DNA of 43,347 nucleotides. Origin: an uncultured Bacilli bacterium. GTDB lineage: Bacteria > Bacillota_I > Bacilli_A > RF39 > UBA660. The DNA is taken from assembly GCA_947522695.1 (NCBI GenBank), contig CANNTX010000002.1, positions 1-43,347 on the forward strand, read 5' to 3'. Each line of letters begins with the position of its first letter. Positions within the stretch are counted from its first letter, which is position 1. The translations under genes and the position numbers were made by a program. Shown piece by piece: positions 2,190 to 37,611 of this stretch. The notes under the pieces are model-generated. The model made no database searches. It had not been told where the DNA came from and saw only the letters and a program-made list of their open reading frames with translations.

Positions 2190-2943
2190 CTACAATTTCT
2201 TTTAATTCACCATCAACATTAATTACATAAGACATTTTTAAAACATTAACAGTTAAAACTTTATATTTTTTTCCTTCATAAATAACTTCACTACCAATTT
2301 TAGGAAGCAAACTTCTATAATAACTGTAATTTTCATCTTCATATGCTAAACAACACAACAATCTTCCACAAGCACCATTTATTTTAGAAGGATTTAAAGC
2401 AATATTTTGATTCTTAGCCATATTAATTCCAACTGCTTCAAGTTCATTTAAAAAACTACCACAACATAAAGGTCTACCACAAGGACCTAAACCAGATATT
2501 TTTCTAGCCTTATCTCTGATACCAATTTGATGTAATTCAATTCTAGTTTTATATTTACCAGCAAGTATTTTAACTAATTCCCTAAAATCAATTCTTTCAT
2601 CAGAAACAAAGTTAATTAATAATTGAGTACGATCAAAATTAAAACTAGAATCTATAAATTGCATTTTTAATCCTAAATTTTTAGCCGAACCTTTAGCAAT
2701 TTCAAGTGCTTCTTTAGCATCAGCCAAATTCATTAAATATATATCATAATCTTTTTTACTAGCAACTCTAATAATATTTTTTAAATCATTATTATTTGCT
2801 TCATTAGAAAGATTAAATACCTTTCCAAATAAAGTACCATTGTCAGACTGAACAATAACATAATCATCCTTTTTTAATTCAATTCCATTTGAATCAAAAT
2901 AAACACACTTATCAGTATCTTTAAATTTTACACCAACAACCAT
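2167..2943 (-). CDS. ricT: PSP1-domain protein RicT/YaaT (stage 0 sporulation / RNase Y regulator family)
   Basis: Conserved Cys clusters CGRPLCC and CGRLLCCL; 258 aa; position after holB. Confidence 0.85.
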   Translation of the reverse strand: MVVGVKFKDTDKCVYFDSNGIELKKDDYVIVQSDNGTLFGKVFNLSNEANNNDLKNIIRVASKKDYDIYLMNLADAKEALEIAKGSAKNLGLKMQFIDSSFNFDRTQLLINFVSDERIDFRELVKILAGKYKTRIELHQIGIRDKARKISGLGPCGRPLCCGSFLNELEAVGINMAKNQNIALNPSKINGACGRLLCCLAYEDENYSYYRSLLPKIGSEVIYEGKKYKVLTVNVLKMSYVINVDGELKEIVVDNYERN

Positions 2944-2969
2944 TTTTTCGCTCCTCTCAAAATAAAAAT

Positions 2970-3683
2970 TTATTCTAAACTCTCAAAATATAGTTTATCA
3001 AGTGCCAAATCAATATTAACATTATATCTTAAATTATTTAAAAAATCATTTACCTTCAAATAAAAAATATCATTTTCACTATCCAAATACGCTAAATATT
3101 TTATAAACAAGTTATTAATTATCACTTTATCTAATTTTGACACTACAACTTTAAATTTTATATAATCTTCAAAATTAAAATTTTTAAATTTACATAAATT
3201 ATTAAAAATATCTTCATCTACTAACACATTATTTACATCAATATCATTTTTTAAAACTTGACATCTACTTATTAAAGTTGGCAATAACTCATTTGAATTA
3301 TCACTAATTAAAAATCCAACAACTTTCTCATTAGGTTCCTCTAAAACTTTTAATAATTTATTAACGGATTGTTCATTCATTAAACCAGCATTCAAAATAA
3401 AAAATAATTTATAATACCCATCAAAAGACATTGTAGATAAAAATTCCTGTAAATTTAAAATTTGATCTTTATCAATTAAATTATCAATAGGTCTTAAAAT
3501 TCTAACTGAAATATTATTCTCAATATCATCAATATTAAATATCATTTTCTTTTCTAAAAACAATTTAAAAACACTATTCATAACATCTTCATAATTATTT
3601 GATTCAACTAAAAAAGCATGAGAAAGTTTATTCTCATCTATTACATTTGATAAATATTTTATGTTTTCTTCCTTCATACTCAA
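2970..3683 (-). CDS. holB: DNA polymerase III delta-prime subunit (short form)
   Basis: LSHAFL, LLKVLEEP and LISRCQ clamp-loader motifs; holB-yaaT synteny. Confidence 0.75.
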   Translation of the reverse strand: MSMKEENIKYLSNVIDENKLSHAFLVESNNYEDVMNSVFKLFLEKKMIFNIDDIENNISVRILRPIDNLIDKDQILNLQEFLSTMSFDGYYKLFFILNAGLMNEQSVNKLLKVLEEPNEKVVGFLISDNSNELLPTLISRCQVLKNDIDVNNVLVDEDIFNNLCKFKNFNFEDYIKFKVVVSKLDKVIINNLFIKYLAYLDSENDIFYLKVNDFLNNLRYNVNIDLALDKLYFESLE

Positions 3684-6985: not shown

Positions 6986-6999
6986 TTCAAATAAAAAAA

Positions 7000-7070
7000 G
7001 TGCACATGCGTAGAGGTAAGTATGGCTGCTTTATTCCTAATCTGACCAAGTTATTACATACACATTGCAC
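7000..7070 (-). ncRNA. ffs: Signal recognition particle RNA, minimal (4.5S-like) form, ~71 nt
   Basis: The minus-strand RNA is GUGCAAUGUGUAUGUAAUAACUUGGUCAGAUUAGGAAUAAAGCAGCCAUACUUACCUCUACGCAUGUGCAC followed by U7. It contains the conserved domain IV GGUCAGA-UUA-GGAA-UAA-AGCAGCC (compare E. coli GGUCAGGUCCGGAAGGAAGCAGCC). The 5' and 3' ends pair (GUGCA/UGCAC), and the promoter places +1 at about 7070. Confidence 0.85.
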
Positions 7071-7076
7071 AAATAT

Positions 7077-7105
7077 AATATACCACAACAATTAAGAGAT
7101 AACAA
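7077..7105 (-). promoter_or_regulatory. Sigma-A type promoter of the SRP RNA
   Basis: On the minus strand: TTGTTA, a 17-nt spacer, then TGG-TATATT (extended -10). The RNA 5' G lies 6 nt downstream. Confidence 0.6.
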
Positions 7106-7113
7106 GAAAATAA

Positions 7114-7122
7114 TGTGGAAAA
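7114..7122 (-). promoter_or_regulatory. DnaA box (TTTTCCACA) at the left edge of the palindrome array
   Basis: tgtggaaaa on the plus strand. The same 15-mer context, aatgtggaaaacttt, recurs at 9042..9056. Confidence 0.5.
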
Positions 7123-7222: not shown

Positions 7223-7238
7223 TATTTCATATGAAACA
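7223..7238. promoter_or_regulatory. Decayed parS-like site TATTTCATATGAAACA (3 mismatches)
   Basis: Occupies the position of a parS in the first copy of the repeat unit. Confidence 0.3.
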
Positions 7239-7384
7239 TAACAAAAGAATTTATAAATGATATTACATAGATACAAATAATATATAAAAAATTAATTATT
7301 CATTATATGTAAAACATTTTAAAGTTATAAAATTATTAAAAAGTATCAAATTAATTATCTTAATCAAAAGAAAATCAAACAAAT

Positions 7385-7400
7385 TATTTCCCGGGAAATA
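7385..7400. promoter_or_regulatory. Noc-binding-site palindrome TATTTCCCGGGAAATA
   Basis: Contains the 14-bp NBS ATTTCCCGGGAAAT. Embedded in the 24-bp perfect palindrome AAATTATTTCCCGGGAAATAATTT (7381..7404). Confidence 0.8.
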
Positions 7401-7432
7401 ATTTAACAATAAAAACTATAAAAAAACGTATA

Positions 7433-7448
7433 TGTTTCACGTGAAACA
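7433..7448. promoter_or_regulatory. parS, perfect TGTTTCACGTGAAACA
   Basis: Exact symmetric form of the Firmicute parS consensus TGTTNCACGTGAAACA. The palindrome extends to 20 bp (7431..7450). Confidence 0.85.
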
Positions 7449-7567
7449 TATATAGAAAAAATAATGTTAATAACTTTAAGAATATAAACAAAAATATATA
7501 TTAAAAAATAGTATAAGTAATATTTAATAATTATAAATAACAAATCAATCAAAAAATTCAAAAAATA

Positions 7568-7583
7568 TGTTTCACTTGAAACA
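7568..7583. promoter_or_regulatory. parS-like TGTTTCACTTGAAACA (1 central mismatch)
   Basis: One substitution, G to T, at position 9. Confidence 0.55.
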
Positions 7584-7768
7584 TTAAAAAATGCATATAA
7601 ATAATTATTAAAAAATATTAAAAAATGATAAATATTAAAATAAATAGAAATAATTAATCTATATATAAAAAGTAAATTAATATATTATTATATAGTAAAT
7701 AGTATAATAAAGTTGTTAAATAAAGTTCTATTAATAAAGGAAATCCATTGATAGATCTAAAAATATAA

Positions 7769-7784
7769 AGTTTCACGTGAAACA
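7769..7784. promoter_or_regulatory. parS AGTTTCACGTGAAACA (1 outer mismatch)
   Basis: The 14-bp core GTTTCACGTGAAAC is perfect. Confidence 0.75.
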
Positions 7785-7899
7785 TAACAAAAGAATCTAT
7801 AAATGATAATACATAGATACAAATAATATATAAAAATTATAATGTTATATTTTATTTAAAAATTCAAAAAGTATTTAATCAAGTCAACATCAAACAAAT

Positions 7900-7915
7900 T
7901 ATTTCCCGGGAAATA
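7900..7915. promoter_or_regulatory. Noc-binding-site palindrome TATTTCCCGGGAAATA
   Basis: Same 24-bp palindrome as at 7381; here 7896..7919. Confidence 0.8.
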
Positions 7916-7969
7916 ATTTCACTAAATAAATATAATAAATTACATTATATTAAAAACAATAATCATTGA

Positions 7970-7985
7970 TGTTTCACGTGAAACA
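7970..7985. promoter_or_regulatory. parS, perfect TGTTTCACGTGAAACA
   Basis: Exact 16-mer. Confidence 0.85.
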
Positions 7986-8105
7986 TATATAAAAAATAAA
8001 GATAAAGTTAATAACTTTAGAAATATTAACAAAATTGTATATAAAATAATATAAGTTGTATTTAATTGATATAAATAACAAATCAACAAATAAAAATAAA
8101 TGTTA

Positions 8106-8121
8106 TGTTTCACGTGAAACA
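8106..8121. promoter_or_regulatory. parS, perfect TGTTTCACGTGAAACA
   Basis: Exact 16-mer; extended palindrome TATGTTTCACGTGAAACATA. Confidence 0.85.
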
Positions 8122-8246
8122 TAACAAGAACATATATAAACAAATTATTTTATCAGTATAAATTGTTATTAAATTAACTTAAGAAAATAATATATTATAA
8201 ACAAATTTAACTAGCTGAATCATAAAAAATAAATACAATACCCATA

Positions 8247-8262
8247 AGTTTCACATGAAACA
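8247..8262. promoter_or_regulatory. parS-like AGTTTCACATGAAACA (2 mismatches)
   Basis: Mismatches at the outer position and at central position 9. Confidence 0.4.
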
Positions 8263-8447
8263 TCACAAAAAACATATAATTAATGATACAAAAGAATTAA
8301 AAAATAAATAAATATTAAAATAAAAAAAATAATCTATAATTTAAAAATTAATATATAGTAAATAAAAGTATAAAGATATTTAATTAAATAAAAATAAATA
8401 ATTTTTTATAAATAATATATAAAAAAAATTATAAATAAATTAATAAA

Positions 8448-8463
8448 TGTTTCACGTGAAACT
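8448..8463. promoter_or_regulatory. parS TGTTTCACGTGAAACT (1 outer mismatch)
   Basis: The 14-bp core is perfect. Confidence 0.75.
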
Positions 8464-8583
8464 TATATACAAATTAAAAAATAATAATTTACTAAAATTA
8501 TATGTATTTAAAATAAATATAATTTTAGTAAATAAAAGTACTATTAATAAAGAAATAACATTAATAGATCTAAACAATAAAAA

Positions 8584-8599
8584 TGTTTCACGTGAAACA
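8584..8599. promoter_or_regulatory. parS, perfect TGTTTCACGTGAAACA
   Basis: Exact 16-mer. Confidence 0.85.
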
Positions 8600-8739
8600 T
8601 AACAATAGAATTTATAGTTAGTATTTCAAAAACACAAATAATATATAATTAATTATTCATTATATAAAAAAATTATAATGTAATATTTTATTAAAAAGTA
8701 TAAAATTAAGTGTCTTAATCAAAGCAAAATCGAACAAAT

Positions 8740-8755
8740 TATTTCCCGGGAAATA
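8740..8755. promoter_or_regulatory. Noc-binding-site palindrome TATTTCCCGGGAAATA
   Basis: Same 24-bp palindrome; here 8736..8759. Confidence 0.8.
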
Positions 8756-8788
8756 ATTTTTGCAATAAATACTATAAAAAGACGTAAA

Positions 8789-8804
8789 TGTTTCACGTGA
8801 AACT
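8789..8804. promoter_or_regulatory. parS TGTTTCACGTGAAACT (1 outer mismatch)
   Basis: The 14-bp core is perfect. Confidence 0.75.
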
Positions 8805-8840
8805 TAATAAGTATATTTATTAATGAATATCTATAACACA

Positions 8841-8856
8841 ATTTTCACATAAAACA
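8841..8856. promoter_or_regulatory. Decayed parS relic ATTTTCACATAAAACA (4 mismatches)
   Basis: Weak resemblance only; probably non-functional. Confidence 0.2.
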
Positions 8857-8956
8857 TAAATGAATAAAAATAATGTTAATAACTTTTGAAAAAGATAATA
8901 AAAAATCAAAAAATTATTAAGTTAAGAAGAAATCAATATCAAATTATTAAAAAAAA

Positions 8957-8972
8957 TATTTCCCGGGAAATA
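8957..8972. promoter_or_regulatory. Noc-binding-site palindrome TATTTCCCGGGAAATA
   Basis: Perfect 16-bp palindrome. The flanks differ from the other three copies. Confidence 0.8.
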
Positions 8973-9043: not shown

Positions 9044-9052
9044 TGTGGAAAA
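9044..9052 (-). promoter_or_regulatory. DnaA box (TTTTCCACA) at the right edge of the palindrome array
   Basis: tgtggaaaa on the plus strand, in the same orientation and context as 7114..7122. Confidence 0.5.
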
Positions 9053-9061
9053 CTTTATTTA

Positions 9062-9100
9062 AATAAAGAAAAACGATATAATTTACTCATTTATATCGTT
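9062..9100 (-). terminator. Rho-independent terminator of gyrA
   Basis: 9-bp stem aacgatata/tatatcgtt (9072..9080 / 9092..9100). The loop spans the gyrA stop codon. A T-rich run follows on the minus strand. Confidence 0.6.
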
Positions 9101-11659
9101 ATTTTCATCATTATTCTTTGAAATTAAACTAATAGCTGCAACTTTTTGATCATTTTTTAAATTTATTAATCTAGTTCCTTGAGTAACTCTACCCAATTGA
9201 CTTAATTGATCAAGTGGAATTCTTATAATAATACCCTCATTTGTAATGATCATTAAATCACAATTATCTTCAACACGTTTAATTGCAGCAATACCACCAT
9301 TCTTATCAGTAATATTTAATGCCTTAACACCTTTGCTACCTCTACTAGTTTTTCTAAATTCACTAATTAATGTTAATTTACCATATCCTTTTTCAGTAAC
9401 AATTACAATATTATCAGATTCCTTAGTAGTTTCTACACCAACACATAACTCATCACCAAGATTAATTCCTTTAACTCCAGAAGCAGTTCTACCCATCATT
9501 CTAATATCGGATTCTTTGAATAATACAACTCTTCCAGCTGATGAAGCAAGAACAACATCGCATTCACCATCAGTTTTCTTAACGCCAATCAATTCATCAT
9601 TATCTCTTAAACTAATACAAATCTTGCCAGATTTTCTAATATTATCAAATTCTTCAATAGCAGTCTTCTTTACAATACCTTTCTTAGTAGCAAATAGTAA
9701 ATATTTAGCACTGTCATTTCTAGAATAAGTAAGCATTGAAGTTATATATTCATCCTTCTCAATTTGTAATAAATTAATAATTGGTAATCCCTTAGAAGTT
9801 CTACTAAACTCAGGAACCTCATACCCTTTAATCTTATAAACCTTACCTTTATTAGTAAACAATAATACATAATCATGAGACATTAAATTTGACATATACT
9901 CGACATAATCTTCCTCGTTAGTTGACATTCCCTTTACGCCTACACCACCTCTATTTTGAATCTTATAAGTTTCAGAAGTAGTTCTCTTAATATAACCTTT
10001 TGATGTTAAAGAAATAACAATATTTTCATTTGGAATTAAAGACTCATCTTCAATATAATCAATAGCAGTCATATCAATAGAAGTACGTCTATCATCAGAA
10101 TATCTATTCTTAATATCTAATAACTCTTGTTTTATAATGTTTAAAACTTTTTCTTCACTAGCTAAAATTGATTTTAATTCCTCAATTAGTTCTAATAGTG
10201 ACTTTAATTCCTCTTCAATCTTACTTCTTTCTAAACCAGTTAAACGTCTTAACTTTAATTCTAAAATACTTTCAGCTTGAATTTGAGATAAGAAAAATCT
10301 ATCCATTAAAGTCTTTTTAGCAATTTCATCGGTTTCAGATGTCTTAATAACCTTAATAACCTCATCAATATTATCAAGAGCAATCTTATAACCTTCTAAA
10401 ATATGAACTCTAGCTTCACTCTTTTTCAAATCAAACTTAGTTCTTCTAATAATAACTTCTTTTTGATGATCTATATACTTCGAAATAATAGATTTTAATC
10501 CCAAAGTACGTGGAACACCTTGATCAAGCATTAAGAAGATAATACTATAATTAACTTGAAATTGAGTATGTTTAAATAATTTATTTAAAACAACCTGGGC
10601 ATTAGCATCCTTCTTTAAAGTAATAGTAATTTTAACTCCATCCTTTAAATCAGTATGATAATCAGTTATACCATCAATAATCTTGTTATGAACAAGTTCA
10701 GCAACTTTATTTTTAAGTTCACTAGTATTAACACCATAAGGAACTTCAGTAATAACAATATTAGAATGAGTTCCCTTTTCCTCAATTTCCGCTCTACTTC
10801 TAATAGTAATCGTTCCCCTACCAGTTTCATAAGCCTGTTTTATACCAGAATTTCCTAAAATTATACCACCAGTTGGAAAATCAGGACCTTTAATATACTG
10901 CATTAAACCTAAAGTATCAATATCAGGATTATCAATATAAGCAACACATCCATCTATAACCTCACCTAAATTATGTGGAGGAATATTAGTAGCCATACCA
11001 ACAGCAATACCCATTGTTCCATTTACAAGTACATTTGGAAATTTACTAGGTAAAACCTTAGGTTCTTTTAAAGTTTCGTCAAAGTTAGCCATAAAATCAA
11101 CAGTATCTTTATTAATATCCCTTAATAATTCAAGAGATAATTTTGATAATCTAGCCTCAGTATAACGGTAAGCAGCAGCACCATCGCCATCAATATTACC
11201 AAAGTTTCCGTGTCCATCAACTAAAGTATATCTTTGACTAAAATCCTGTGCAAGTCTTACCATTGCTTCATAAATTGAAGAGTCACCGTGTGGATGATAA
11301 TGTCCCATTACATTACCAACAGTTGTAGCCGATTTTCTATGAGGTTTATCAGGAGTATTACCTTCCTCATACATAGACCATAAAATACGTCTGTGAACAG
11401 GTTTTAAACCATCTCTTAAGTCTGGTAGAGCACGAGATGTAATAACACTCATAGAGTATCTTAAAAACGAATCCTTGACCTCAGTAACAATATTATTAAC
11501 ATCTCTAGAATCTCTTTCATGAAATACACCACTAAAATCATCAGTCGAATCATTATTTACCTTAATATTATCATCAACAATTTCTTCATGGGTAACTAAA
11601 TCTTCATTAGTATCTACGTTTGTAGTATCAATTATATTTTCATTTTCTTCATTATTCAT
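9083..11659 (-). CDS. gyrA: DNA gyrase subunit A
   Basis: [31 protein letters not shown] (active-site Tyr) and C-terminal beta-pinwheel repeats. AGGAGGTG lies upstream of the ATG. The protein has an acidic ~45-aa N-terminal extension. Confidence 0.97.
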
Positions 11660-14785: not shown

Positions 14786-15244
14786 TTATTTATCTTTTTT
14801 TCTATTTTTTAATGCATTATCAAGCGATAAAGATTTAAAGTACTGATTTCTTATTATATTATAAGTTGCATCTACATTTATTTCTTCATCATTTAAAAAC
14901 TGAATAGTTGTTTTTTCATCATCCGGAACTATTTTTTTAATATTTCCTAAATTAATCCAAGAGCATTCTTTTAATCTAGGAGAACATGTTGGAAAAAATA
15001 TCATATTATCTTGTTCAGACATAACAATTGGAGCTTTATAACCAAAACCAAGCATTGCATAAGTTCCTTTTAATCTTCCATCAATACTACTTCCATAATA
15101 TTCACAATTTTCATTAATAACTGACGATACATTCTTCTCTAAAATAAAATAATCATGATTTTCATATACTACCGTCTTCTTTTTACTTAATGGTACAATC
15201 GCTAATGTATTTTCTGTAATCTTATAACTTTTCAAACCACTCAC
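14786..15244 (-). CDS. comK: ComK-family competence transcription factor-like protein
   Basis: CEYYGSSIDGRLKGTY, KAPIVMS and IFFPTCSPRLKECSWI parallel B. subtilis ComK CRFFGSSYAGRKAGTY, KPPIMV and LFPTLSS..QCGWI (recalled). The GTG at 15244 abuts the SD GAGGGGG, so the TTG at 15235 is an alternative start. Confidence 0.75.
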   Translation of the reverse strand: MSGLKSYKITENTLAIVPLSKKKTVVYENHDYFILEKNVSSVINENCEYYGSSIDGRLKGTYAMLGFGYKAPIVMSEQDNMIFFPTCSPRLKECSWINLGNIKKIVPDDEKTTIQFLNDEEINVDATYNIIRNQYFKSLSLDNALKNRKKDK

Positions 15245-16484: not shown

Positions 16485-16599
16485 TTTATATCCTTCTTTC
16501 TAATTTAATAATAATAATGGTGTTCATTTTGTGGAAAACTCTAAAACTTCCTTATTTTAAAGGCTTTCATTAAAATTTTTATTTTCAAACTTTTCCACA
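16485..16599. promoter_or_regulatory. oriC downstream module (dnaA-dnaN spacer): 2 DnaA boxes, a (TAA)4 run and AT-rich unwinding candidate
   Basis: tgtggaaaa at 16530..16538, ttttccaca at 16591..16599 and taataataataat at 16506..16518. Confidence 0.6.
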
Positions 16600-17985
16600 T
16601 TAATTAACAATTTTATTTTTTATGTTCTCTATATCATCTTTTAACTTTGCATTTGTGTTAATATCTTCAGCTATTTTATCACAGGCATGAATTACTGTTG
16701 AATGATCTCTATTTCCAAATTCAAGTCCTATTTTAACAAGTGTTTCATCAGTTGTTGTTTGACTTAAATATATCCCAATTTGTCTAGCATAATTAATATT
16801 TGCTGTCCTTTTTTTACTTTTTAAATCTTCAACACTTAGATTAAAATATTCAGCAACTGCTCTTTGAATTCTTTGAATATTATTTGTTATATACATTGAT
16901 GTGCCTAGGAAACCTTTTAAAGCCTCGGTTGCAAATTCAACATTTATCTCATTTGGTACCATAATTGCAGCATAAGCATATAACCTATTAATAGCGCCTT
17001 CTAACTGTCTAACATCATTCTCACAATTAGATGCAATATATTCAATTACCCTATCATCAACCAATTTAGCAACTTCATGGCCCATCATTTTATTTCTAAG
17101 AATTTGGCATCTTAATGCAAAATCAGGTGGATAAATATTAGCCGTTAATCCCCATCTAAATCTTGTTAAAAGTCTTTCTTCTAATAATTTTAAATCATCT
17201 GGTGATCTGTCAGAACTAATAATTATCTGTTTATTTGAATCGTATAATTCAGTAAATGTATGGAAAAATTCATCTTGTGATTTATCAGCACCAGCTAAAA
17301 ATTGAATATCATCTATAATAAGAACGTCGATGTTACGATATTTCTCTTTAAAATTGTTCATAACTTCATAATTGTCAACATTCTTATCTTTTCGAAGCAT
17401 TCCTGTAAAATCAGCTATAAATTCACTACTTGTTACATAAAGAACTACTTTGTCTGAGCTATTTGAAATTCTATTACCAATTGCATGCATCAAATGTGTT
17501 TTACCGAGTCCACTCTTTCCATATATAAATAAAGGGTTATAAATTTTACCTGGATTTTCTGCAACTGCCTGTGCTGATGAGCAAGCAAATCTGTTTGTAT
17601 CTCCTACAATAAAATTATCAAAGGTATATTTCGGATTTAAATTAGAATTTAATTTTTTATGCTCTATTTCTAGGGCCTTGCCAATATTTTTTGTTTCAAC
17701 TACTCTATCATTTTGAGCTATTTCTTCTTTATGATTACCACTTTTAAGAACAAATTCAAAATCATAATTAACATTAGTTATTTCATATAAAACTTCACTC
17801 ATTAAATCAGTATAATTTCGTGCCAAAAAGTTCTTTTGAAATTCACTCTCTACCTCTACAATACAAGAATTTCCATTTATACCCAGTAATTTCGTGGGTT
17901 TTAGCCAACTATTGAAAGAAAAAGGTTGTAGTATTTTAACTTGAATTTGAGCTAAAAATTTATTCCACAATTGTTCATTATCCAT
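16600..17985 (-). CDS. dnaA: Chromosomal replication initiator DnaA
   Basis: AAA+ Walker A GKSGLGKTHL, IDDIQFL, and domain IV (NRDHSTVIHACDKI). Confidence 0.97.
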   Translation of the reverse strand: MDNEQLWNKFLAQIQVKILQPFSFNSWLKPTKLLGINGNSCIVEVESEFQKNFLARNYTDLMSEVLYEITNVNYDFEFVLKSGNHKEEIAQNDRVVETKNIGKALEIEHKKLNSNLNPKYTFDNFIVGDTNRFACSSAQAVAENPGKIYNPLFIYGKSGLGKTHLMHAIGNRISNSSDKVVLYVTSSEFIADFTGMLRKDKNVDNYEVMNNFKEKYRNIDVLIIDDIQFLAGADKSQDEFFHTFTELYDSNKQIIISSDRSPDDLKLLEERLLTRFRWGLTANIYPPDFALRCQILRNKMMGHEVAKLVDDRVIEYIASNCENDVRQLEGAINRLYAYAAIMVPNEINVEFATEALKGFLGTSMYITNNIQRIQRAVAEYFNLSVEDLKSKKRTANINYARQIGIYLSQTTTDETLVKIGLEFGNRDHSTVIHACDKIAEDINTNAKLKDDIENIKNKIVN

Positions 17986-18220
17986 ACCATCACCCCGATG
18001 TTCCGTTTTTTACTACCATTATTGTAAAACACGATTGTGGAAAAATAAAGTAAAAAATACAAAAAATTTTTTTAAACATAGTTATACACACACTTTTCCA
18101 CAAAAATAAGACCATTTTATCGGTATATAAACAACTTATCAACATTATCAACAAATTTATTTTCACATTGTTTAAAAGTTTTCCACTTTTCCACACTTTT
18201 CTGTGGAAAACTATTTTTTC
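17986..18220. promoter_or_regulatory. oriC upstream module: cluster of at least 8 DnaA boxes
   Basis: Boxes: 18036..18044 tgtggaaaa, 18082..18090 ttatacaca, 18094..18102 ttttccaca, 18136..18144 and 18145..18153 ttatcaaca, 18179..18187 ttttccact, 18187..18195 ttttccaca, 18202..18210 tgtggaaaa. The strand switch of all genes occurs here. Confidence 0.8.
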
Positions 18221-20372: not shown

Positions 20373-21065
20373 ATGAAATTAATTTTAAAACCAATCACTT
20401 TAAAAGAAGATACCTTAAATGAAATTAATAGAGGTAATTATGATGTAACCAATTTTATATCATCAATTAAAGAATATCTATCAAAATCAAATGACCTACT
20501 TTATACCAAAATAGAAAGTCTAAACGAATATGAACTATATCAAAACTTACAACCAATTTATAATATTAAACTAAATACAAATGATTATTTAAAAGCCTTA
20601 TCAAAAAAATATAACAAACATTATACCAATTTTATAACTATCAAAGTTAATGATGATAATTATTTTGCATTATCAACTAGCAAATATGCCTATTTAGATG
20701 AAAGTACTATTGATTTAAATAAATTTAGAAATTTAACAAATAGAGAAGAATTAATCATATTAAATAAAGAATTAATAAGCAACGAATATCTTGACGAAAC
20801 AAATTGCTTATTTCCATATTTTCTCGAAATATTAAAAAAAGAACTTTTAGTTAAAAACATCTTATTCGATCTAAAATGGTATACAAAAGAAGTAATGCAT
20901 CAAGCAAGGACAGTTACAGACTTAGCAAATAATGAAACAAATCCCGAATTAGCCGAAATAGGTAAGATGTATAAAGATGCACTAGCTAATTGTTATAACG
21001 AAGGAACAATTTCCAAAACAAAAAAAATATCAGTTCCAAAACATCGAAAAAATAAAAGGAATTAA
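20373..21065 (+). CDS. Hypothetical protein (230 aa, basic C-terminal tail), orphan insertion between jag and mnmE
   Basis: Long ORF with SD GAGAGAAGGA and codon usage like its neighbours. No family recognised. Confidence 0.6.
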   Translation: MKLILKPITLKEDTLNEINRGNYDVTNFISSIKEYLSKSNDLLYTKIESLNEYELYQNLQPIYNIKLNTNDYLKALSKKYNKHYTNFITIKVNDDNYFALSTSKYAYLDESTIDLNKFRNLTNREELIILNKELISNEYLDETNCLFPYFLEILKKELLVKNILFDLKWYTKEVMHQARTVTDLANNETNPELAEIGKMYKDALANCYNEGTISKTKKISVPKHRKNKRN

Positions 21066-21154: not shown

Positions 21155-22507
21155 ATGAATTCAACTATATGTGCAATATCTACAAGTTTAGGTGTAGGAG
21201 CCATTTCTATAATAAGAGTTAGTGGCCCAAATGCCATAAAAATAGTTAATAATTTATTTGATGGAAAAGATCTTACCAAAGTTTCAACCCATACAATTCA
21301 CTATGGACATATTGTATCTAATAAAGAAATAATAGATGAAGTGTTAGTTTCAGTTATGCTAGCTCCAAAAACATTTACCATGGAAGATATAGTTGAAATA
21401 AATTCTCATGGAGGTCCTGCTACAACCAATAAAATTTTAGAATTACTTCTATTAAATGGCTGCACCCAAGCTGAGCCGGGTGAGTTTACCAAAAGAGCCT
21501 TTTTAAATGGTAGAATAGACCTAGTTGAAGCAGAATCAATCAGTGATTTAATCTCATCTCAAACCGAAAAATCACGTAAACTTGCTATTAACGGAGTAAC
21601 AAAAAATTTATCTAACAAAATAAATGATATTCGTAAAGACATAATGGATATCCAAGCAAATATTGAAGTTAACATCGATTATCCAGAATACGAAGAAGGA
21701 GAAAAATATACTAAAGAATCATTAAAACCATTAATAGATAAAGTATATTCAAAAATAAATGAGTTATTATCAAATTCCAAAAATGGTAAAATAATCAAAG
21801 ATGGTATCTCAGTAGCGTTAGTAGGTAAACCAAACGTAGGAAAAAGTAGTATATTAAACGCATTATTAGAAGAAGAAAAAGCAATAGTTACAAATATTCC
21901 AGGAACAACAAGAGATATAGTAGAAGGTAAAATAAATTTAGACGGAATAATGTTAAACATCATCGATACTGCTGGAATCAGAAAAACTAACGATATCGTC
22001 GAGCAAATAGGCGTCGAAAAGAGTTTAAAAATGATAGATGAAGCCGATTTAATAATCTATGTTCTAAATAATAATGAAGAACTAACTAGTGAAGATTTAG
22101 AAACAATTAAAGAATTACAATCAAAACAATCCATCATCTTTATCAATAAAAACGATTTAGATAATAAACTAGATTTAAAGAGATTATCTAACTATAATAT
22201 AATAACAGGTAATACCTTAAATTATGAAGGTTTAACAAATTTAAAAAATGAAATAAAGAGATTATTTAATCTTAATGAAATTGAACAAGAAGATTATACA
22301 TATCTTTCAAATGCAAGACAAATCGCATTAATAACTAAAGCCAAAGATATGATAGAAAATATATATAACAATTTTGAGAATGTTCCTATTGATATGTTCA
22401 CAATTGATTTAAAAAATACCTATGAAACATTAGGTGAAATAATAGGTGCAACATATAAAGATGACTTATTAGATGAATTATTCTCAAAGTTTTGTTTAGG
22501 AAAGTAA
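21155..22507 (+). CDS. mnmE: tRNA modification GTPase MnmE
   Basis: G1 GKPNVGKSS, G3 DTAGIR, NKND and the C-terminal CLGK tetrapeptide. Confidence 0.95.
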   Translation: MNSTICAISTSLGVGAISIIRVSGPNAIKIVNNLFDGKDLTKVSTHTIHYGHIVSNKEIIDEVLVSVMLAPKTFTMEDIVEINSHGGPATTNKILELLLLNGCTQAEPGEFTKRAFLNGRIDLVEAESISDLISSQTEKSRKLAINGVTKNLSNKINDIRKDIMDIQANIEVNIDYPEYEEGEKYTKESLKPLIDKVYSKINELLSNSKNGKIIKDGISVALVGKPNVGKSSILNALLEEEKAIVTNIPGTTRDIVEGKINLDGIMLNIIDTAGIRKTNDIVEQIGVEKSLKMIDEADLIIYVLNNNEELTSEDLETIKELQSKQSIIFINKNDLDNKLDLKRLSNYNIITGNTLNYEGLTNLKNEIKRLFNLNEIEQEDYTYLSNARQIALITKAKDMIENIYNNFENVPIDMFTIDLKNTYETLGEIIGATYKDDLLDELFSKFCLGK

Positions 22508-22516
22508 GGAATAAAA

Positions 22517-24376
22517 ATGAAATATGATGTAATAGTTGTCGGTGGTGGTCATGCTGGATGTGAAGCAGCCAATGCTTCAGCCAAAATGGGTCTAAAAACC
22601 GCATTAGTTACTGCAAATATAAAAAATATAGCCGATATGCCATGCAATCCATCAATAGGTGGAACAGCTAAAGGTATAGTGGTTCGTGAAATAGATGCCT
22701 TAGGTGGATTAATGGGTAAAATTGCAGATAAAACCCATATTCAAATCAAAATGCTTAATAATGCTAAAGGTCCAGCAGTAAGATCACTTCGTGCCCAAGG
22801 TGATAAAATAACATACCCAAGAGAAATGTTAAAAGCGCTAAACTCACTTGAAAATTTAACCATAATTGAAGGAATGGTAGAAAATTTAATTGTTGAAAAT
22901 AATACCATTAAAGGAATAATATTAGCAGATAATACGGAAATATTATGTGATGCCTTAATTTTAACAACAGGAACATATCTAAGAAGCAAAATATTAGTAG
23001 GAAGTACTAGTAAAGAAGAAGGACCACATGGTGAAAAACGATCTAACAATTTAAGCAATGTTTTAAAATCTTATGGTTTTGAAATTCAAAGATTAAAAAC
23101 AGGTACACCCCAAAGATTAGATCGCTCAACAATCGATTTTAGTAAATTAAAAGAAGAATGTGGCGATGACTGTTATTGGACATTCAGTTTTGATAACGGT
23201 CCATTATATGATAAAGATAAACAAATCAAATGTCACATAGTTTATACAACTCCCGAAACTCATGAAATAATTAGAAAGAATTTAAAAAAATCCGCTATGT
23301 ATGGTGGATATGCCGAAGGAATAGGCCCAAGATATTGTCCATCAATTGAAGATAAAGTAGTCCGTTTTGCCGATAAAGAAAGACATCAATTGTTCTTAGA
23401 ACCAGAAAGTCTTTACTATGATGATATTTACTTACAAGGATTTTCAACAAGTATGCCAGAAGACGTTCAAGAATTAATGGTTCATAGTCTTCCCGGATTA
23501 GAACATGCTAAAATATTAAAATATGCTTATGCTATCGAATATGATGCTATAAACCCATTACAATTAAAGTCATCACTAGAAACAAAAGTAATTAATAATT
23601 TATTTACTGCCGGACAAATTAATGGTACAAGTGGATATGAAGAAGCAGCCGGTCAAGGTATAATTGCTGGTATAAATGCTGGACTTAAATTACAAGGAAA
23701 AGATCCATTAATCTTAAAAAGAAATGAATCATATATCGGAGTTTTAATTGACGACTTAGTAACTAAAGGAACCAAAGAACCATATCGTTTATTAACATCA
23801 CGTGCTGAATATCGTTTATTACTTAGACATGATAACGCTGATATTAGATTAAGAAACTATGGTTATCAAGTAGGTTTAATATCTGAAGACCAACATAATC
23901 GTTTACTAAAAAAACTATCTGATATTCAAAAATTATTAAATTATTTAAAAGAAACTCGTATTACTCCAAGTACAATTCCTGCATCATTAAAAGAAATAGT
24001 TACTTTAAATAGTGGAGTAAGTCTATACGAATTATTAAAACGTCCTGAAATTACATTAGATTTATTAATTGAAAATAATTTAGTTCCAAATGATTACAGT
24101 GATGAAGTAAAAGAACAAGTCACATTTGCCGTTAAATATGAAGGATATATCGCAAAAGAAGAGCAAGAAGCAGAGAAGTTATTAAAACTTGAAGAAAAAG
24201 AAATACCAGAAGATATTGATTATGATAAAGTAAAGAATCTTGCCAGTGAAGCACGCAGTAAATTAAAACAAGTTCATCCTAGAACAATTGCTCAAGCATC
24301 AAGAATAAGTGGTGTTAACCCAGTAGATATATCTGTTCTTTCAATCTATTTAAAAAAGGAATATCCTCATGAATAA
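22517..24376 (+). CDS. mnmG: tRNA uridine 5-carboxymethylaminomethyl modification enzyme MnmG
   Basis: FAD motif VIVVGGGHAGCEA, GPRYCPSIEDK and QINGTSGYEEAA. Confidence 0.96.
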   Translation: MKYDVIVVGGGHAGCEAANASAKMGLKTALVTANIKNIADMPCNPSIGGTAKGIVVREIDALGGLMGKIADKTHIQIKMLNNAKGPAVRSLRAQGDKITYPREMLKALNSLENLTIIEGMVENLIVENNTIKGIILADNTEILCDALILTTGTYLRSKILVGSTSKEEGPHGEKRSNNLSNVLKSYGFEIQRLKTGTPQRLDRSTIDFSKLKEECGDDCYWTFSFDNGPLYDKDKQIKCHIVYTTPETHEIIRKNLKKSAMYGGYAEGIGPRYCPSIEDKVVRFADKERHQLFLEPESLYYDDIYLQGFSTSMPEDVQELMVHSLPGLEHAKILKYAYAIEYDAINPLQLKSSLETKVINNLFTAGQINGTSGYEEAAGQGIIAGINAGLKLQGKDPLILKRNESYIGVLIDDLVTKGTKEPYRLLTSRAEYRLLLRHDNADIRLRNYGYQVGLISEDQHNRLLKKLSDIQKLLNYLKETRITPSTIPASLKEIVTLNSGVSLYELLKRPEITLDLLIENNLVPNDYSDEVKEQVTFAVKYEGYIAKEEQEAEKLLKLEEKEIPEDIDYDKVKNLASEARSKLKQVHPRTIAQASRISGVNPVDISVLSIYLKKEYPHE

Positions 24377-25073
24377 AGAAGAATTTAAAAGTGAATTATC
24401 AAAACTAGGAATAAACTTAACAAACGATCAATTAGAATCCCTAGAAAAATATGCTAACATTTTAATTGAATATAACAAACATACCAATATAACCGCTATT
24501 ACCGATAAAGAAAGTATTTATTTAAAACACTTTTATGATTCACTAACCTTAACTAAAATAACCAATTTAACTAAAGATTTATCAGTTCTAGATGTTGGAT
24601 CAGGTGGCGGTTTTCCCGGAATTGTTATAAAAATAGTTTATCCTAATTTAAATTTAACTTTATTAGATAGCAATAATAAAAAAAGTGAATTTCAAAGATA
24701 TGTTATTAACGAATTAAAATTAACAGATATAAATGTAATAAATGAACGTGCTGAAAATTACTTTAAAAAAGGCAATAAATACGATCTAGTTGTCGCAAGA
24801 GCAGTATCAAATATGCCAGTTTTAGATGAATTATGTATACCATTTCTAAAAATAGGTGGTAATCTAGTATTAATGAAAGCAGATGCTAGTACTGAACTAG
24901 AAAATAGTAAGTCAAGCATTAAAATATTAGGTGGAGAAATTGTTGATATTCAAAAATTTAATTTACCAAAAGAAGAATCTTTAAGAACGTTAATTAAAAT
25001 AACAAAAGTAAATGAAACACCATCTATTTATCCCAGAAATTATGATAAAATAATAAAAAAACCTCTGAAATAA
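24369..25073 (+). CDS. rsmG: 16S rRNA (guanine527-N7)-methyltransferase RsmG
   Basis: DVGSGGGFPG SAM motif; mnmG-rsmG synteny. Confidence 0.93.
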   Translation: MNKEEFKSELSKLGINLTNDQLESLEKYANILIEYNKHTNITAITDKESIYLKHFYDSLTLTKITNLTKDLSVLDVGSGGGFPGIVIKIVYPNLNLTLLDSNNKKSEFQRYVINELKLTDINVINERAENYFKKGNKYDLVVARAVSNMPVLDELCIPFLKIGGNLVLMKADASTELENSKSSIKILGGEIVDIQKFNLPKEESLRTLIKITKVNETPSIYPRNYDKIIKKPLK

Positions 25074-25228: not shown

Positions 25229-26467
25229 ATGGAAAATGCGATTTTAAATGTAAATATCGATTTAATAATGCCAAATCGTTTTCAACCACGTCTTGTTTTC
25301 GATGAAAAAGCTTTAAATGAACTTGCTGATTCCATTAAAGAACATGGAATTATTGAGCCAATTATCGTAAGACCATTAAATGATAAATATGAAATTATTG
25401 CTGGTGAAAGACGTTATAAAGCAGCATGTATTGCTGGCTTAACTAAAGTACCCGTTATTGTTAAACATTTAAGTGATTATAAAAGTGCTCAAGTAGCAGT
25501 TATTGAAAATGTTCAAAGAAGAAATTTAAATCCTATTGAAGAGGCAAAATCTTATAAGAGAATATTAGATCATGGTTTAAAAACACAAGAAGAATTAGCT
25601 AAAGAAATAGGAGTATCTCAAAGTACAATTGCTAATAAGCTAAGACTACTTAGTCTTGCTGAACCAGTTAAACAAGCTTTAAGTGAAAATAAAATAAGTG
25701 AGCGTCATGCAAGAGCCCTACTTAAAATAACTTCCCTTGATAAACAAGAAGAACTATTAAATAAGGTTATCACTGAAAGATTAACAGTAAAAGATTTAGA
25801 TGATGAAATTAAAAAACTTGATACTTCTACAACTCCAAATATAACATTCAAAATGCCAGAAGTACCAAATATTGTTAACACATTAAATTTATTTGATGAA
25901 AAAATATCTGAAGAGCAAGTAGCATCTTCAAAACCCGAATTTGTTACCCCAGCTGTAGAACCAAAAGAGGAGCCATCAATAACTGAACCTAAAATAGAAA
26001 CAGTTCCAAAAGAAGAAACTATTGAAGTAAGTCCAGTTCCTGAAATTAAGGAAGTTCAAGAAAGTCAAGGTATACAAGCACCACCAGAACCTCAACCCGA
26101 TAATGGTACAAATATATTTGATATACCAACAATAGGAAAAGAACCAAAACCGGATTATCCATCCTTAGAAGATTTACAAACAAATATGGATTTAGGTGTA
26201 GAAAGTGATATTTTAGTACCAGAACAACCAGAAGAACCAATTGTTGAAGAAAAAGAAGAGCCAAAATTAGAAGTAACAGAACCAATCGTTGTACCTGAAA
26301 CACCAGTTGAACCACCTAAGCCAAGAATTGTACCAAACGATTTAAATAGTGTTAAAACTGCAATATCTGATTTAAATAAAGAAATTAAAGATGCTGGTTT
26401 CAACATTGAATTCGAAGATTATGATTTTTCTGATTTATATCAAGCAATAATTAAAATAAATAAATGA
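25229..26467 (+). CDS. noc: ParB-family CTP-switch DNA-binding protein, Noc-like, with long Pro/Glu-rich insertion
   Basis: PNRFQPR and GERRYKAA (ParB N-domain). The HTH QSTIANKLRLL...ISERHARAL is like B. subtilis Noc rather than Spo0J (RPHIANHLRLL...GHGRTL, recalled). The C-terminus FNIEFEDYDFSDLYQAIIKINK resembles the Noc tail. It sits directly after rsmG. An in-frame TAG 5 codons upstream rules out a longer N-terminus. Confidence 0.75.
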   Translation: MENAILNVNIDLIMPNRFQPRLVFDEKALNELADSIKEHGIIEPIIVRPLNDKYEIIAGERRYKAACIAGLTKVPVIVKHLSDYKSAQVAVIENVQRRNLNPIEEAKSYKRILDHGLKTQEELAKEIGVSQSTIANKLRLLSLAEPVKQALSENKISERHARALLKITSLDKQEELLNKVITERLTVKDLDDEIKKLDTSTTPNITFKMPEVPNIVNTLNLFDEKISEEQVASSKPEFVTPAVEPKEEPSITEPKIETVPKEETIEVSPVPEIKEVQESQGIQAPPEPQPDNGTNIFDIPTIGKEPKPDYPSLEDLQTNMDLGVESDILVPEQPEEPIVEEKEEPKLEVTEPIVVPETPVEPPKPRIVPNDLNSVKTAISDLNKEIKDAGFNIEFEDYDFSDLYQAIIKINK

Positions 26468-30391: not shown

Positions 30392-31450
30392 ATGATAGAT
30401 AGATTAGAACTATTAACTAATAGATATAATGAAATAAACGAAGAATTATTAAAACCAGAAGTATTATCAGATTTTAATAAGCAAAAGAAATTATCAAAAG
30501 AAAAAGGTGGCATAGAAGAAGCAGTAAATAAATATGCCGAATATAAAGATTTAGTTTCTGAAATAGAAGGCTTAAAGGAACTAGTAATGGATCCTGAAAT
30601 GCATGAAATAGCATCTATTGAACTAGATGAAAAAAAGGAAAAACTTGCATCTTTAACTAAAGAAATTGAAATACTACTTTTACCTAAAGATGAAAATGAT
30701 GGAAAAGATATTATCATGGAAATTAGAGGAGCTGCCGGTGGTGATGAAGCTAATATTTTTGCTGGCGACCTATTTAGAATGTATTCAAAATATGCTGAAA
30801 AAGTTGGTTGGAAATTAGAAGCAACTCATGCTGTTGAAGGAGATTCAGGTGGCTTTTCAACTATTGAATGTTCAATTAAAGGTGATAATGTTTATTCTAA
30901 ATTAAAATTTGAAAGCGGAGTTCACCGTGTTCAAAGAGTTCCTGAAACAGAGACAGCCGGACGTATTCATACATCTACTGCAACTGTTTTAGTAATGCCT
31001 GAAGTTGAAGATGTTGATATTGAGATAAAACCAGAAGATGTTCGTGTTGACGTTTATCGTTCAAGTGGTAAAGGTGGACAAGGAGTAAATACAACTGACT
31101 CTGCTGTTCGTGTAACTCATATTCCAACTGGTATTGTCGTAACATGCCAAAATGAAAGAAGTCAAATAAAGAATAAAGAAAGAGCTATGGTTGTTTTAAA
31201 ATCTAGATTATATGATGCCGAAATGCAAAAACAAAATAATGAGACAGGTACAGCTCGTAAGAGTATGATTGGATCAGGCGATCGTTCAGAAAAAATAAGA
31301 ACATACAATTATCCACAAAATCGTGTAACCGATCATCGTATTAACTTTAGTATTATGGAACTAGATCGTGTAATGGAAGGAAACTTAGATCCAATTATAG
31401 AAGCCTTAATAACAGAAGATCAAAGAAGGAAAATGCAAGGTGAGGAATAA
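30392..31450 (+). CDS. prfA: Peptide chain release factor 1
   Basis: GGQ motif ([16 protein letters not shown]) and the PxT-type anticodon loop [13 protein letters not shown]. Confidence 0.95.
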
Positions 31451-36202: not shown

Positions 36203-36256
36203 ACTATGATAATATAAAAATGTATTAGAAATAATACGTTAAATAAATAATATTAA

Positions 36257-36376
36257 TTTTATCAAGAATGAGGGAGAGAATTAGCTCTAAGAACTCATAC
36301 CAACCTACTTAAGGCAAGGTGGTAATGCTAATATCGATGAAAGAGATTTATTACTAACTCTTTCAAGAGTTTTTTA
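36257..36376 (+). promoter_or_regulatory. S-box / SAM-I-like riboswitch with terminator in the metK leader (apparently lacking P4)
   Basis: P1 UUUUAUC/GAUGAAA (36257..36263 / 36326..36332). J1/2 is AAGA. P2 is AUGAG/CUCAU around GGAGAGA...AAGAA. ACCAACC corresponds to GCAACC, and GGUAAUGCUAA to GGUGCUAA. Terminator AACUCUU-UC-AAGAGUU plus U6 at 36356..36376. AAAGAG (36331..36336) can alternatively pair with CUCUUU (36358..36363). Confidence 0.55.
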
Positions 36377-37554: not shown

Positions 37555-37611
37555 ATCGAAGTAAACGAATTTCTATGATTTAATTTAAATCATGGCGGAA
37601 GGAGAATAAAA

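Follow-up and report, generated by a model that had tools for sequence, protein, structure and literature searches.

The DNA analysed here, a 43,347-bp stretch of contig CANNTX010000002.1 from an uncultured Bacilli bacterium (hereafter the window), contains at positions 7223-8972 a gene-free array in which two kinds of palindromes are interleaved, the parS sites read by the segregation protein ParB and the Noc-binding sites (NBS) read by its paralogue Noc. Within these 1.75 kb there are 14 sites, 10 parS-like and 4 NBS, and the rest of the window lacks both motifs. The array is found at the same junction, between gyrA and the signal recognition particle RNA gene ffs, across a broad lineage, and its two site types are set at a constant helical phase to each other. 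Taken together, these features suggest that it is probably a lineage-wide composite centromere-like region, loading two kinds of ParB-family clamp that depend on cytidine triphosphate (CTP).

The sites were located by pattern search, using the 16-mer TGTTTCACGTGAAACA for parS, with GTTTCACGTGAAAC as its perfect 14-bp core, and the 16-mer TATTTCCCGGGAAATA for NBS, which also has the shorter form ATTTCCCGGGAAAT; all the copies that an earlier note on this DNA had placed were recovered at their positions. Regarding parS, the ten sites with up to three mismatches comprise four perfect ones (7433-7448, 7970-7985, 8106-8121 and 8584-8599), four with one mismatch, a single one with two (8247-8262, AGTTTCACATGAAACA) and a single one with three (7223-7238, TATTTCATATGAAACA), and a further relic with four mismatches, ATTTTCACATAAAACA, was read directly from the sequence at 8841-8856. 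Among the sites with one mismatch, this falls in the centre at 7568-7583 (TGTTTCACTTGAAACA) and outside the core at 7769-7784 and 8448-8463, and the site at 8789-8804 also has a perfect core, so that seven parS sites keep GTTTCACGTGAAAC unchanged. The sites match the 16-bp palindromic consensus of Firmicute parS, TGTTNCACGTGAAACA, and the copy at 8106 is enclosed by a longer palindrome, TGTTATGTTTCACGTGAAACATAACA.

All four NBS (7385, 7900, 8740 and 8957) are perfect and identical to the 16-mer used in Noc studies. Three of them lie within an identical 24-bp palindrome, AAATTATTTCCCGGGAAATAATTT, at 7381-7404 (with the 16-mer at 7385-7400), 7896-7919 and 8736-8759, and the fourth, at 8957-8972 and closest to gyrA, has AAAA and not AAAT as its left flank. 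By comparison, dinucleotide-preserving shuffles of the window are expected to hold 0.01 parS with up to two mismatches, 0.21 with up to three and 0.05 NBS. The array also contains higher-order repeats, with units beginning near 7223, 7769 and 8584, in each case at a parS site, the first of which belongs to the repeat families D2 and D3.

The array is bounded on the left by ffs (6986-7081, minus strand; Rfam RF00169, 53.4 bits, above the gathering score) and on the right by gyrA (9083-11659, minus strand; recognised by Pfam DNA_topoisoIV and GyrA_C and by synteny), which precedes the array in all relatives. The gene order is pth ... holB-recR-ybaB-dnaX-tadA-ffs up to the array, then gyrA-gyrB-recF-comK-dnaN-dnaA up to the replication origin (oriC), followed by rpmH-rnpA-yidC-jag-mnmE-mnmG-rsmG, a ParB-family gene, a reverse-strand gene for a penicillin-binding protein (PBP), prfA and spoIIR. 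The oriC region extends over 16530-18210, where dnaA (16600-17985, minus strand) stands between two DnaA-box clusters, at 16530-16599 (with perfect boxes at 16530 and 16591) and at 18036-18210, and where the GC skew turns, at about 18 kb. As oriC is fixed by these clusters and by the skew, its distance to the array is 7.6-11 kb, origin-proximal as for chromosomal parS and in reasonable agreement with the 9-11 kb or so given in the earlier note.

The G+C content of the array is 14-16%, against about 25% elsewhere in the window, and the view that it has no credible open reading frame (ORF) held, as the longest one has 67 amino acids of low complexity and the remaining ones are short and equally low in complexity. 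A promoter scan of the array gave 34 sites compared to 33.6 in shuffles, with no excess. As the array is AT-rich and intergenic and contains both palindromes and internal repeats, it could resemble a set of generic repeats, of the repetitive extragenic palindrome (REP) or miniature inverted-repeat transposable element (MITE) kind, or a structured non-coding RNA, both unrelated to ParB-family proteins. This explanation, which the earlier note had itself set against its interpretation, is nevertheless extremely improbable. No Rfam match was obtained in the array even at E<=1, leaving no structured-RNA signal. The palindromes do not reach a comparable density elsewhere, since the rest of the window has no copies and a further 19 kb or so adds a single NBS, and the whole lineage has the locus in a fixed place. 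Moreover, both motifs are identical to experimentally defined ones, the Firmicute parS and the 16-bp NBS of the Noc study (PMC7383237). A repeat class of the REP/MITE type was thus rejected, as its density would be uniform and 742 kb of related DNA have essentially no parS outside arrays.

The two motifs differ in their distribution. Outside the main arrays, the same 742 kb of related loci contain 24 perfect NBS cores versus one perfect parS core, and the roughly 62 kb covered around oriC of the window species have only one extra site, a perfect NBS within the mfd coding region (21724-21739 of locus L001, corresponding to 11565 of L019), about 65 bp past the left end of the window and about 7.4 kb from the array. 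The idea of a dedicated locus for both motifs therefore stands for parS and not for NBS, which in the DNA covered are dispersed as in model organisms, although their heavy concentration in a single array is atypical. Because of these 24 versus 1 cores and of the copy in mfd, NBS would behave like the dispersed sites of classical Noc, with an added concentration at the centromere, and parS like an element of the centromere only.

Besides their distribution, the sites fall into two strictly discrete classes, every one having either G2/A7 (parS) or A2/C7 (NBS), with one decayed copy as the sole hybrid. This bears out the proposal that the motifs differ at the positions discriminating ParB from Noc (PMC7383237). 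The cores are near-invariant when the unique contexts (436 for parS and 332 for NBS) are compared, the information content peaking over the cores and being zero in the spacers. Conservation extends beyond the core by 2 bp in parS, giving ATGTTTCACGTGAAACAT, and by 5 bp in NBS, giving AAAtTATTTCCCGGGAAATAaTTT, a pattern of sites that are, as judged from these alignments, themselves under selection.

As to the internal architecture, many arrays consist of exact tandem repeats in which NBS and parS strictly alternate. The distances between successive sites are 37 and 69 bp in locus L085 (nine units), 69 and 36 bp in L027, 45 and 67 bp in L087, 27 and 45 bp in L059 and 47 and 35 bp in L035, and both motifs are kept in all of the independent unit lengths of 72, 82, 105 and 112 bp. 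Considering all loci, the centre-to-centre distances between parS and NBS peak at about 26, 36, 47, 58, 68.5 and 77 bp, with a periodicity of 10.5-10.7 bp. The Rayleigh statistic for this periodicity is z=64 for 366 unique spacers, z=20 once the spacers are collapsed at 60% identity and, at the median, z=21 when one random pair is taken from each of 124 loci. The phase is about 0.47 turn, i.e., half-integer turns, so the dyads of parS and NBS face opposite sides of the helix; the distances between parS sites show a weak tendency to whole turns (z 3-4.5). The spacings of the window itself fall on the peaks of the lineage, with 48 bp between the first NBS and the parS at 7433, 70 bp between the second and the parS at 7970 and 49 bp between the third and the parS at 8789. 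This phasing can be read as selection for the simultaneous occupancy of adjacent sites.

The same architecture bears on whether a single class of motif might be functional, in which case the NBS would load a Noc-type protein and parS would be relics, hairpin terminators or amplified spacers, or the reverse. Sites could hitch-hike in the higher-order repeats, the copies at 7223, 8247 and 8841 are decaying and one parS is scored as a hairpin resembling a terminator, all as expected from such a scheme. However, it is very unlikely, as neither core varies appreciably among its unique contexts (more than 330 for NBS and more than 430 for parS), the spacers beside them being devoid of information, the independent units all retain both motifs and the phasing ties parS to NBS.

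A motif, ATGTTAATAACTTT, also recurs within the repeat units, at 7464-7477, 8006-8019 and 8873-8886, and is similar to a decayed version of the DnaA-box context flanking the array, which suggests that the units may have arisen by duplications taking in an array border.

The conservation of the locus was first seen in genomes related to that of the window. A DnaA-anchored scan of species-representative genomes gave eight relatives, with DnaA identities of 99-78%, and the mixed array stands behind gyrA in every relative locus reaching that far (L007, L008, L010, L011, L012 and, in part, L013). These six genomes settle the earlier suggestion that close relatives might have a homologous array at this junction, and the five complete arrays among them possess 8-10 parS and 3-5 NBS each, with up to two mismatches. 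When metagenomes were scanned with the pattern NBS-N{30,58}-parS core, 117 further loci were obtained, all with 22-34% G+C, and there were zero matches in other kinds of genome or context. As seen by tblastn with the window proteins, gyrA is recognisable in 84 of these loci, tadA in 95 and dnaX in 78, and at least one of the three in 115 of the 117, the other two being short loci with no match; the GyrA identity is mostly 47-72%. Since these loci share the context of gyrA on one side and tadA-dnaX on the other, the array design appears to be old and fixed throughout a broad lineage of uncultured bacteria, in which the position of comK between dnaN and recF is also shared.

The organism of the window is uncultured and known from human gut metagenomes, with 25% G+C and genes typical of spore formers (SpoIIR and SpoIID), and the related metagenome-assembled genomes (MAGs) are labelled 'uncultured Bacilli', 'Tenericutes UMGS1661' or 'Bacillales UBA6331'. 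Its order would probably be RFN20, RF39 or ML615J-28. Strains of the window species differ in their arrays, having 11 parS and 5 NBS in L019 and L020 (2492-4295) versus 9 and 4 in the window (7223-8972), with a spacer of 2150 versus 2113 bp, and their Pth protein is identical. This difference in copy number indicates that the array expands and contracts, probably by recombination.

A candidate for one of the two clamps is encoded about 16 kb from the array. The gene at 25229-26467 (plus strand), immediately downstream of rsmG (24369-25073), encodes a ParB-family protein of 412 amino acids with the ParB_N and HTH_ParB domains (Pfam E-values of 4e-33 and 5e-32), the CTP-binding motif IIAGERRYKAA, of the GERRxRA type, and a ParB-type C-terminal domain. 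Its best matches in the Protein Data Bank (PDB) are to Noc (7ng0, E=3e-53), ahead of Spo0J (6sdk, 2e-47), and its best NCBIfam model is nucleoid_noc (TIGR04285), which it reaches with 274 bits, below the cut-off of 315. The position right after rsmG (gidB) is that of Noc and was likewise observed in L013 and in L142-L144.

As described by Jalal et al. (2020, PMC7383237), the specificity of this family depends on residues 173, 179, 184 and 201, which are R-T-A-G in ParB, with R173 and G201 invariant, and Q-K-K-R in Noc. In the same study, Q173 reads A1 and R201 reads C6, the two NBS-specific bases, and a lysine at either 179 or 184 suffices as the permissive residue (PMC7383237). The corresponding residues of the protein at 25229-26467 are Q131, K137, S142 and R159, that is, Q-K-S-R, so the same genome contains a protein with Q173 and R201 and three of the four residues of the Noc set; the fourth position, 184, is serine here and asparagine in most of the subfamily. 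As this combination corresponds to Noc-type specificity residues (PMC7383237), the protein is predicted to bind NBS and not parS. It fits one of the two clamps that the earlier note had proposed as a possibility, being of the Noc type and having suitable specificity residues.

The subfamily, taken as the 150 closest representatives of clusters at 50% identity, is defined by QKNR in 111 and QKSR in 19 members (130 of the 150 jointly), with the canonical QKKR in one. Its members have a total length of 240-770 amino acids, varying with the linker, and a conserved C-terminus, ...EDYDFEDLYQIIIKIxK. In the window protein, a long and apparently disordered linker rich in proline, glutamate and valine, at residues 200-365 or so (25829-26330), separates the DNA-binding and C-terminal domains.

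The main difference from Noc is at the N-terminal. In Noc, the helices alpha1 and alpha2 form a Noc-specific membrane-targeting region that is required for nucleoid occlusion (PMC8429893). The amphipathic alpha1 and alpha2 are both lacking in the window protein, where residue 6 aligns to residue 29 of Geobacillus thermoleovorans Noc and to residue 5 of its N-delta-26 construct. Its ORF leaves no room for an upstream extension and is preceded by a Shine-Dalgarno sequence of its own, and no N-terminal extension was found in the 150 closest representatives. Thus, the product is derived from Noc and very probably reads NBS, and it departs from Noc proper in three defining features, namely the model score, the residue at 184 and the membrane-targeting helices. 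Nucleoid occlusion in the classical sense, one of the two functions that had been proposed for the array, is doubtful because the membrane-targeting helix is absent.

The second clamp is the less secure part, and several points weigh against a reading with two. The search for ParB and ParA covered origin regions and array loci, through Pfam scans of the named ORFs of the window and gene tables for 10 kb past each of its ends, and neither the window nor the roughly 62 kb of this species around oriC contained a canonical ParB (with R173 and G201) or ParA. Similarly, no second ParB-family copy was detected by tblastn in L001-L018 or, separately, in the 117 metagenome loci, nor was a second ParB-family gene present in the gene tables of L019-L024 and L142-L144. 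The sequence up to 10 kb from the Noc-type gene in three divergent relatives (L142-L144) also lacks a canonical ParB or ParA, as do the 2.4 kb of L013 past this gene. The ancestral position of noc-soj-spo0J is held by the Noc-type gene alone, as in five genomes rsmG and this gene are followed, directly or after one short ORF, by the reverse-strand PBP gene, with no soj-spo0J. Because no canonical ParB or ParA occurs in the DNA covered, the proposal of two clamps rests on an unseen gene. Counts of ParB and Soj genes for RFN20, RF39 and ML615J-28 were not found in PMC10868615 or its supplement. In addition, position 184 is serine or asparagine and not the near-invariant lysine of the characterised Noc proteins, so that the prediction of specificity is extrapolated from a Caulobacter ParB scaffold, and the shared ancestry of the spacers inflates the phasing statistic, although six regular peaks remain and length classes so regularly spaced are hard to obtain by descent alone.

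An alternative is that one protein reads both site types. In that case soj-spo0J would have been lost and the Noc-derived clamp, with its QK(N/S)R set, would load at NBS and parS, perhaps with a different affinity or clamp-closing efficiency, having taken over the role at the centromere. It is the sole ParB-family gene in the roughly 62 kb around oriC, its place after rsmG without soj-spo0J recurs in five genomes across the lineage, it lacks an N-terminal peptide for contact with the membrane or ParA, and the change of K184 to asparagine or serine, which defines the subfamily, departs from canonical Noc (PMC7383237). However, a deep mutational scan showed that parS binders have an invariant R173, that variants of dual specificity mostly have threonine or serine at 201 and that Q173 with R201 marks NBS-specific variants (PMC7383237). 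The site classes also stay distinct across large evolutionary distances, intermediates being absent, and the dispersal of NBS, compared to the confinement of parS to arrays, is what two readers would give. A single reader is therefore regarded as unlikely, and two readers are favoured to a fair degree, owing to the discrete classes, their different distributions and the published need for R173. A bolder proposal, to which slightly less than an even chance is given, is that, in this broad lineage of low-GC Bacilli from gut and rumen, the anchor-less Noc paralogue may have become an obligatory second subunit of the centromere, in a heterotypic complex on alternating, phased sites, or, more radically, may have replaced ParB and read both palindromes.

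Returning to the reading with two clamps, we infer from these observations which protein would bind at which site. The parS sites (core GTTTCACGTGAAAC, extended ATGTTTCACGTGAAACAT) would nucleate a canonical ParB, a protein deduced and not located, that would then spread and presumably recruit SMC, as in other Firmicutes. Meanwhile, the 24-bp palindromes of the NBS (AAATTATTTCCCGGGAAATAATTT) would nucleate the Noc-derived protein from 25229-26467. As the centres lie half-integer helical turns apart throughout the lineage, dimers of both proteins could be bound next to each other on opposing sides of the double helix, forming one mixed nucleoprotein complex at 8-11 kb from oriC. The Noc-type protein may also use dispersed sites elsewhere on the chromosome. 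Its role within the partition complex would more likely be architectural or regulatory than one in membrane-tethered nucleoid occlusion, since it has no membrane-targeting helix, and the array itself would grow and shrink via unequal recombination between its internal repeats.

Perfect DnaA boxes also surround the array. Two co-oriented copies of TTTTCCACA on the minus strand bracket it exactly, one at 7114-7122, just outside on the ffs side and abutting the -35 region of the ffs promoter, and its partner at 9044-9052, just past the gyrA terminator, both in the context AAAAGTTTTCCACATT, also written as ATGTGGAAAACTTT. The other perfect boxes of the window are those of the oriC clusters and one TTATCCACA at 31309. 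The ffs-side box is present in the relatives whose loci extend there (L007, L008, L010-L012 and L019), the gyrA-side box in every close relative examined, and both wherever a locus reaches the far side. The boxes were considered as an integral part of the array and demoted, because only 2 of 62 complete arrays of the wider lineage have them on both flanks; the pair would be an accessory, clade-specific addition outside the core design. Perfect DnaA boxes were also observed inside some distant arrays (L046, at 1238-1595 and about 100-130 bp apart, and L029, at 2213-3547), which hints that they are recurrently recruited to array loci.

Other features of the region were noted as well. The ComK-family gene between dnaN and recF (14786-15244, minus strand) has the same place throughout the lineage (L026, L042, L071, L079, L082, L142-L144 and others), which looks like a synapomorphy. 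An ORF of 230 amino acids between jag and mnmE (20373-21065, plus strand) has no Pfam match, and at the corresponding place, in the jag-mnmE intergenic region, the relatives L142 and L144 have a perfect NBS. A riboswitch for S-adenosylmethionine (SAM) upstream of metK and a leader of the ribosomal protein L31, at 36256-36343 and 37573-37604, are ordinary Rfam matches. Some 7 kb past the right end of the window, strains differ after the DUF975 gene (17093-20078 in L022 versus 17093-20561 in L023), where one has HamA and a DEAD-box helicase, similar to Hachiman, and the other has DNA methyltransferases, so this position looks like a hotspot for defence islands.

Compared to the systems already described, the motifs themselves are known ones, canonical Firmicute parS and B. 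subtilis NBS. The parS of B. subtilis and other Firmicutes, bound by Spo0J for SMC loading near oriC, have the same 16-bp consensus, TGTTNCACGTGAAACA, and are also origin-proximal, and both presumably share the nucleation of a CTP-dependent ParB clamp. The 8-10 or so sites of B. subtilis, however, are scattered singly across hundreds of kb and often lie within genes. Here, 8-11 sites are packed into dedicated non-coding DNA of at most 2 kb, at the fixed junction of gyrA and ffs-tadA-dnaX, often as true tandem repeats and always mixed with NBS, and the cognate ParB was not found in the DNA covered. Several parS copies grouped near oriC, as in one large partition complex, are also known from Myxococcus xanthus, Corynebacterium glutamicum and Streptomyces; those regions extend over tens of kb, have a single site type and are not tandem. 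To our knowledge, no such region is reported in which sites for a paralogous clamp are interspersed.

Regarding Noc, the NBS 16-mer is identical to that of B. subtilis and Staphylococcus aureus, where NBS are also dispersed (PMC7383237, PMC8429893). The protein resembles Noc in its ParB_N and HTH_ParB domains, its GERR CTP motif, the residues Q173, K179 and R201 and its position after rsmG; it differs in lacking alpha1 and alpha2, in having serine or asparagine for K184, in its long acidic and proline-rich linker and in its score of 274 against 315 bits. The NBS differ in being concentrated within a centromere array, as a 24-bp palindrome. There is also a resemblance in form to the centromeres of plasmids and phages, which are likewise non-coding tandems of short units with a palindromic ParB-type site in variable copy number. 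An example is sopC of the F plasmid, an iterated centromere of 12 x 43 bp. The present array is, in contrast, chromosomal, has two alternating site types per unit and a fixed housekeeping context and lacks an adjacent partition operon. Finally, in sporulating B. subtilis, the ram sites of RacA, which does not belong to the ParB family, occupy a region of about 600 kb, without interleaving with parS. They resemble the NBS of this array in being a second, non-ParB set of GC-rich palindromes near oriC, beside the parS of Spo0J, in a spore former.

Full-text literature searches gave no description of such a parS/NBS locus. What is new is the dedicated non-coding array at a fixed junction, the way in which the sites of two paralogous clamps are obligatorily interleaved, the helical phasing between the site types and the pairing with a Noc subfamily that lacks the membrane helix and has K184N/S. 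In practice, the array can be used to recognise the origin region when MAGs from this poorly known lineage are examined.

ParB and Noc are a textbook example of how the duplication of a DNA-binding clamp can lead to insulated specificities, one copy acting in segregation and SMC loading and the other in the selection of the division site. Site types that alternate on opposite faces, together with a Noc-type partner that lacks its anchor, imply a functional coupling of the two paralogous CTP clamps, of which no description was found in the literature searched. Being short natural DNA substrates, these arrays make it testable whether the clamps pass, block or stabilise one another, and they raise the questions of what a Noc-type protein may contribute to the centromere or to SMC loading and which target the natural Q-K-N/S-R set would recognise, all of them relevant to the field of chromosome segregation and CTP switches.

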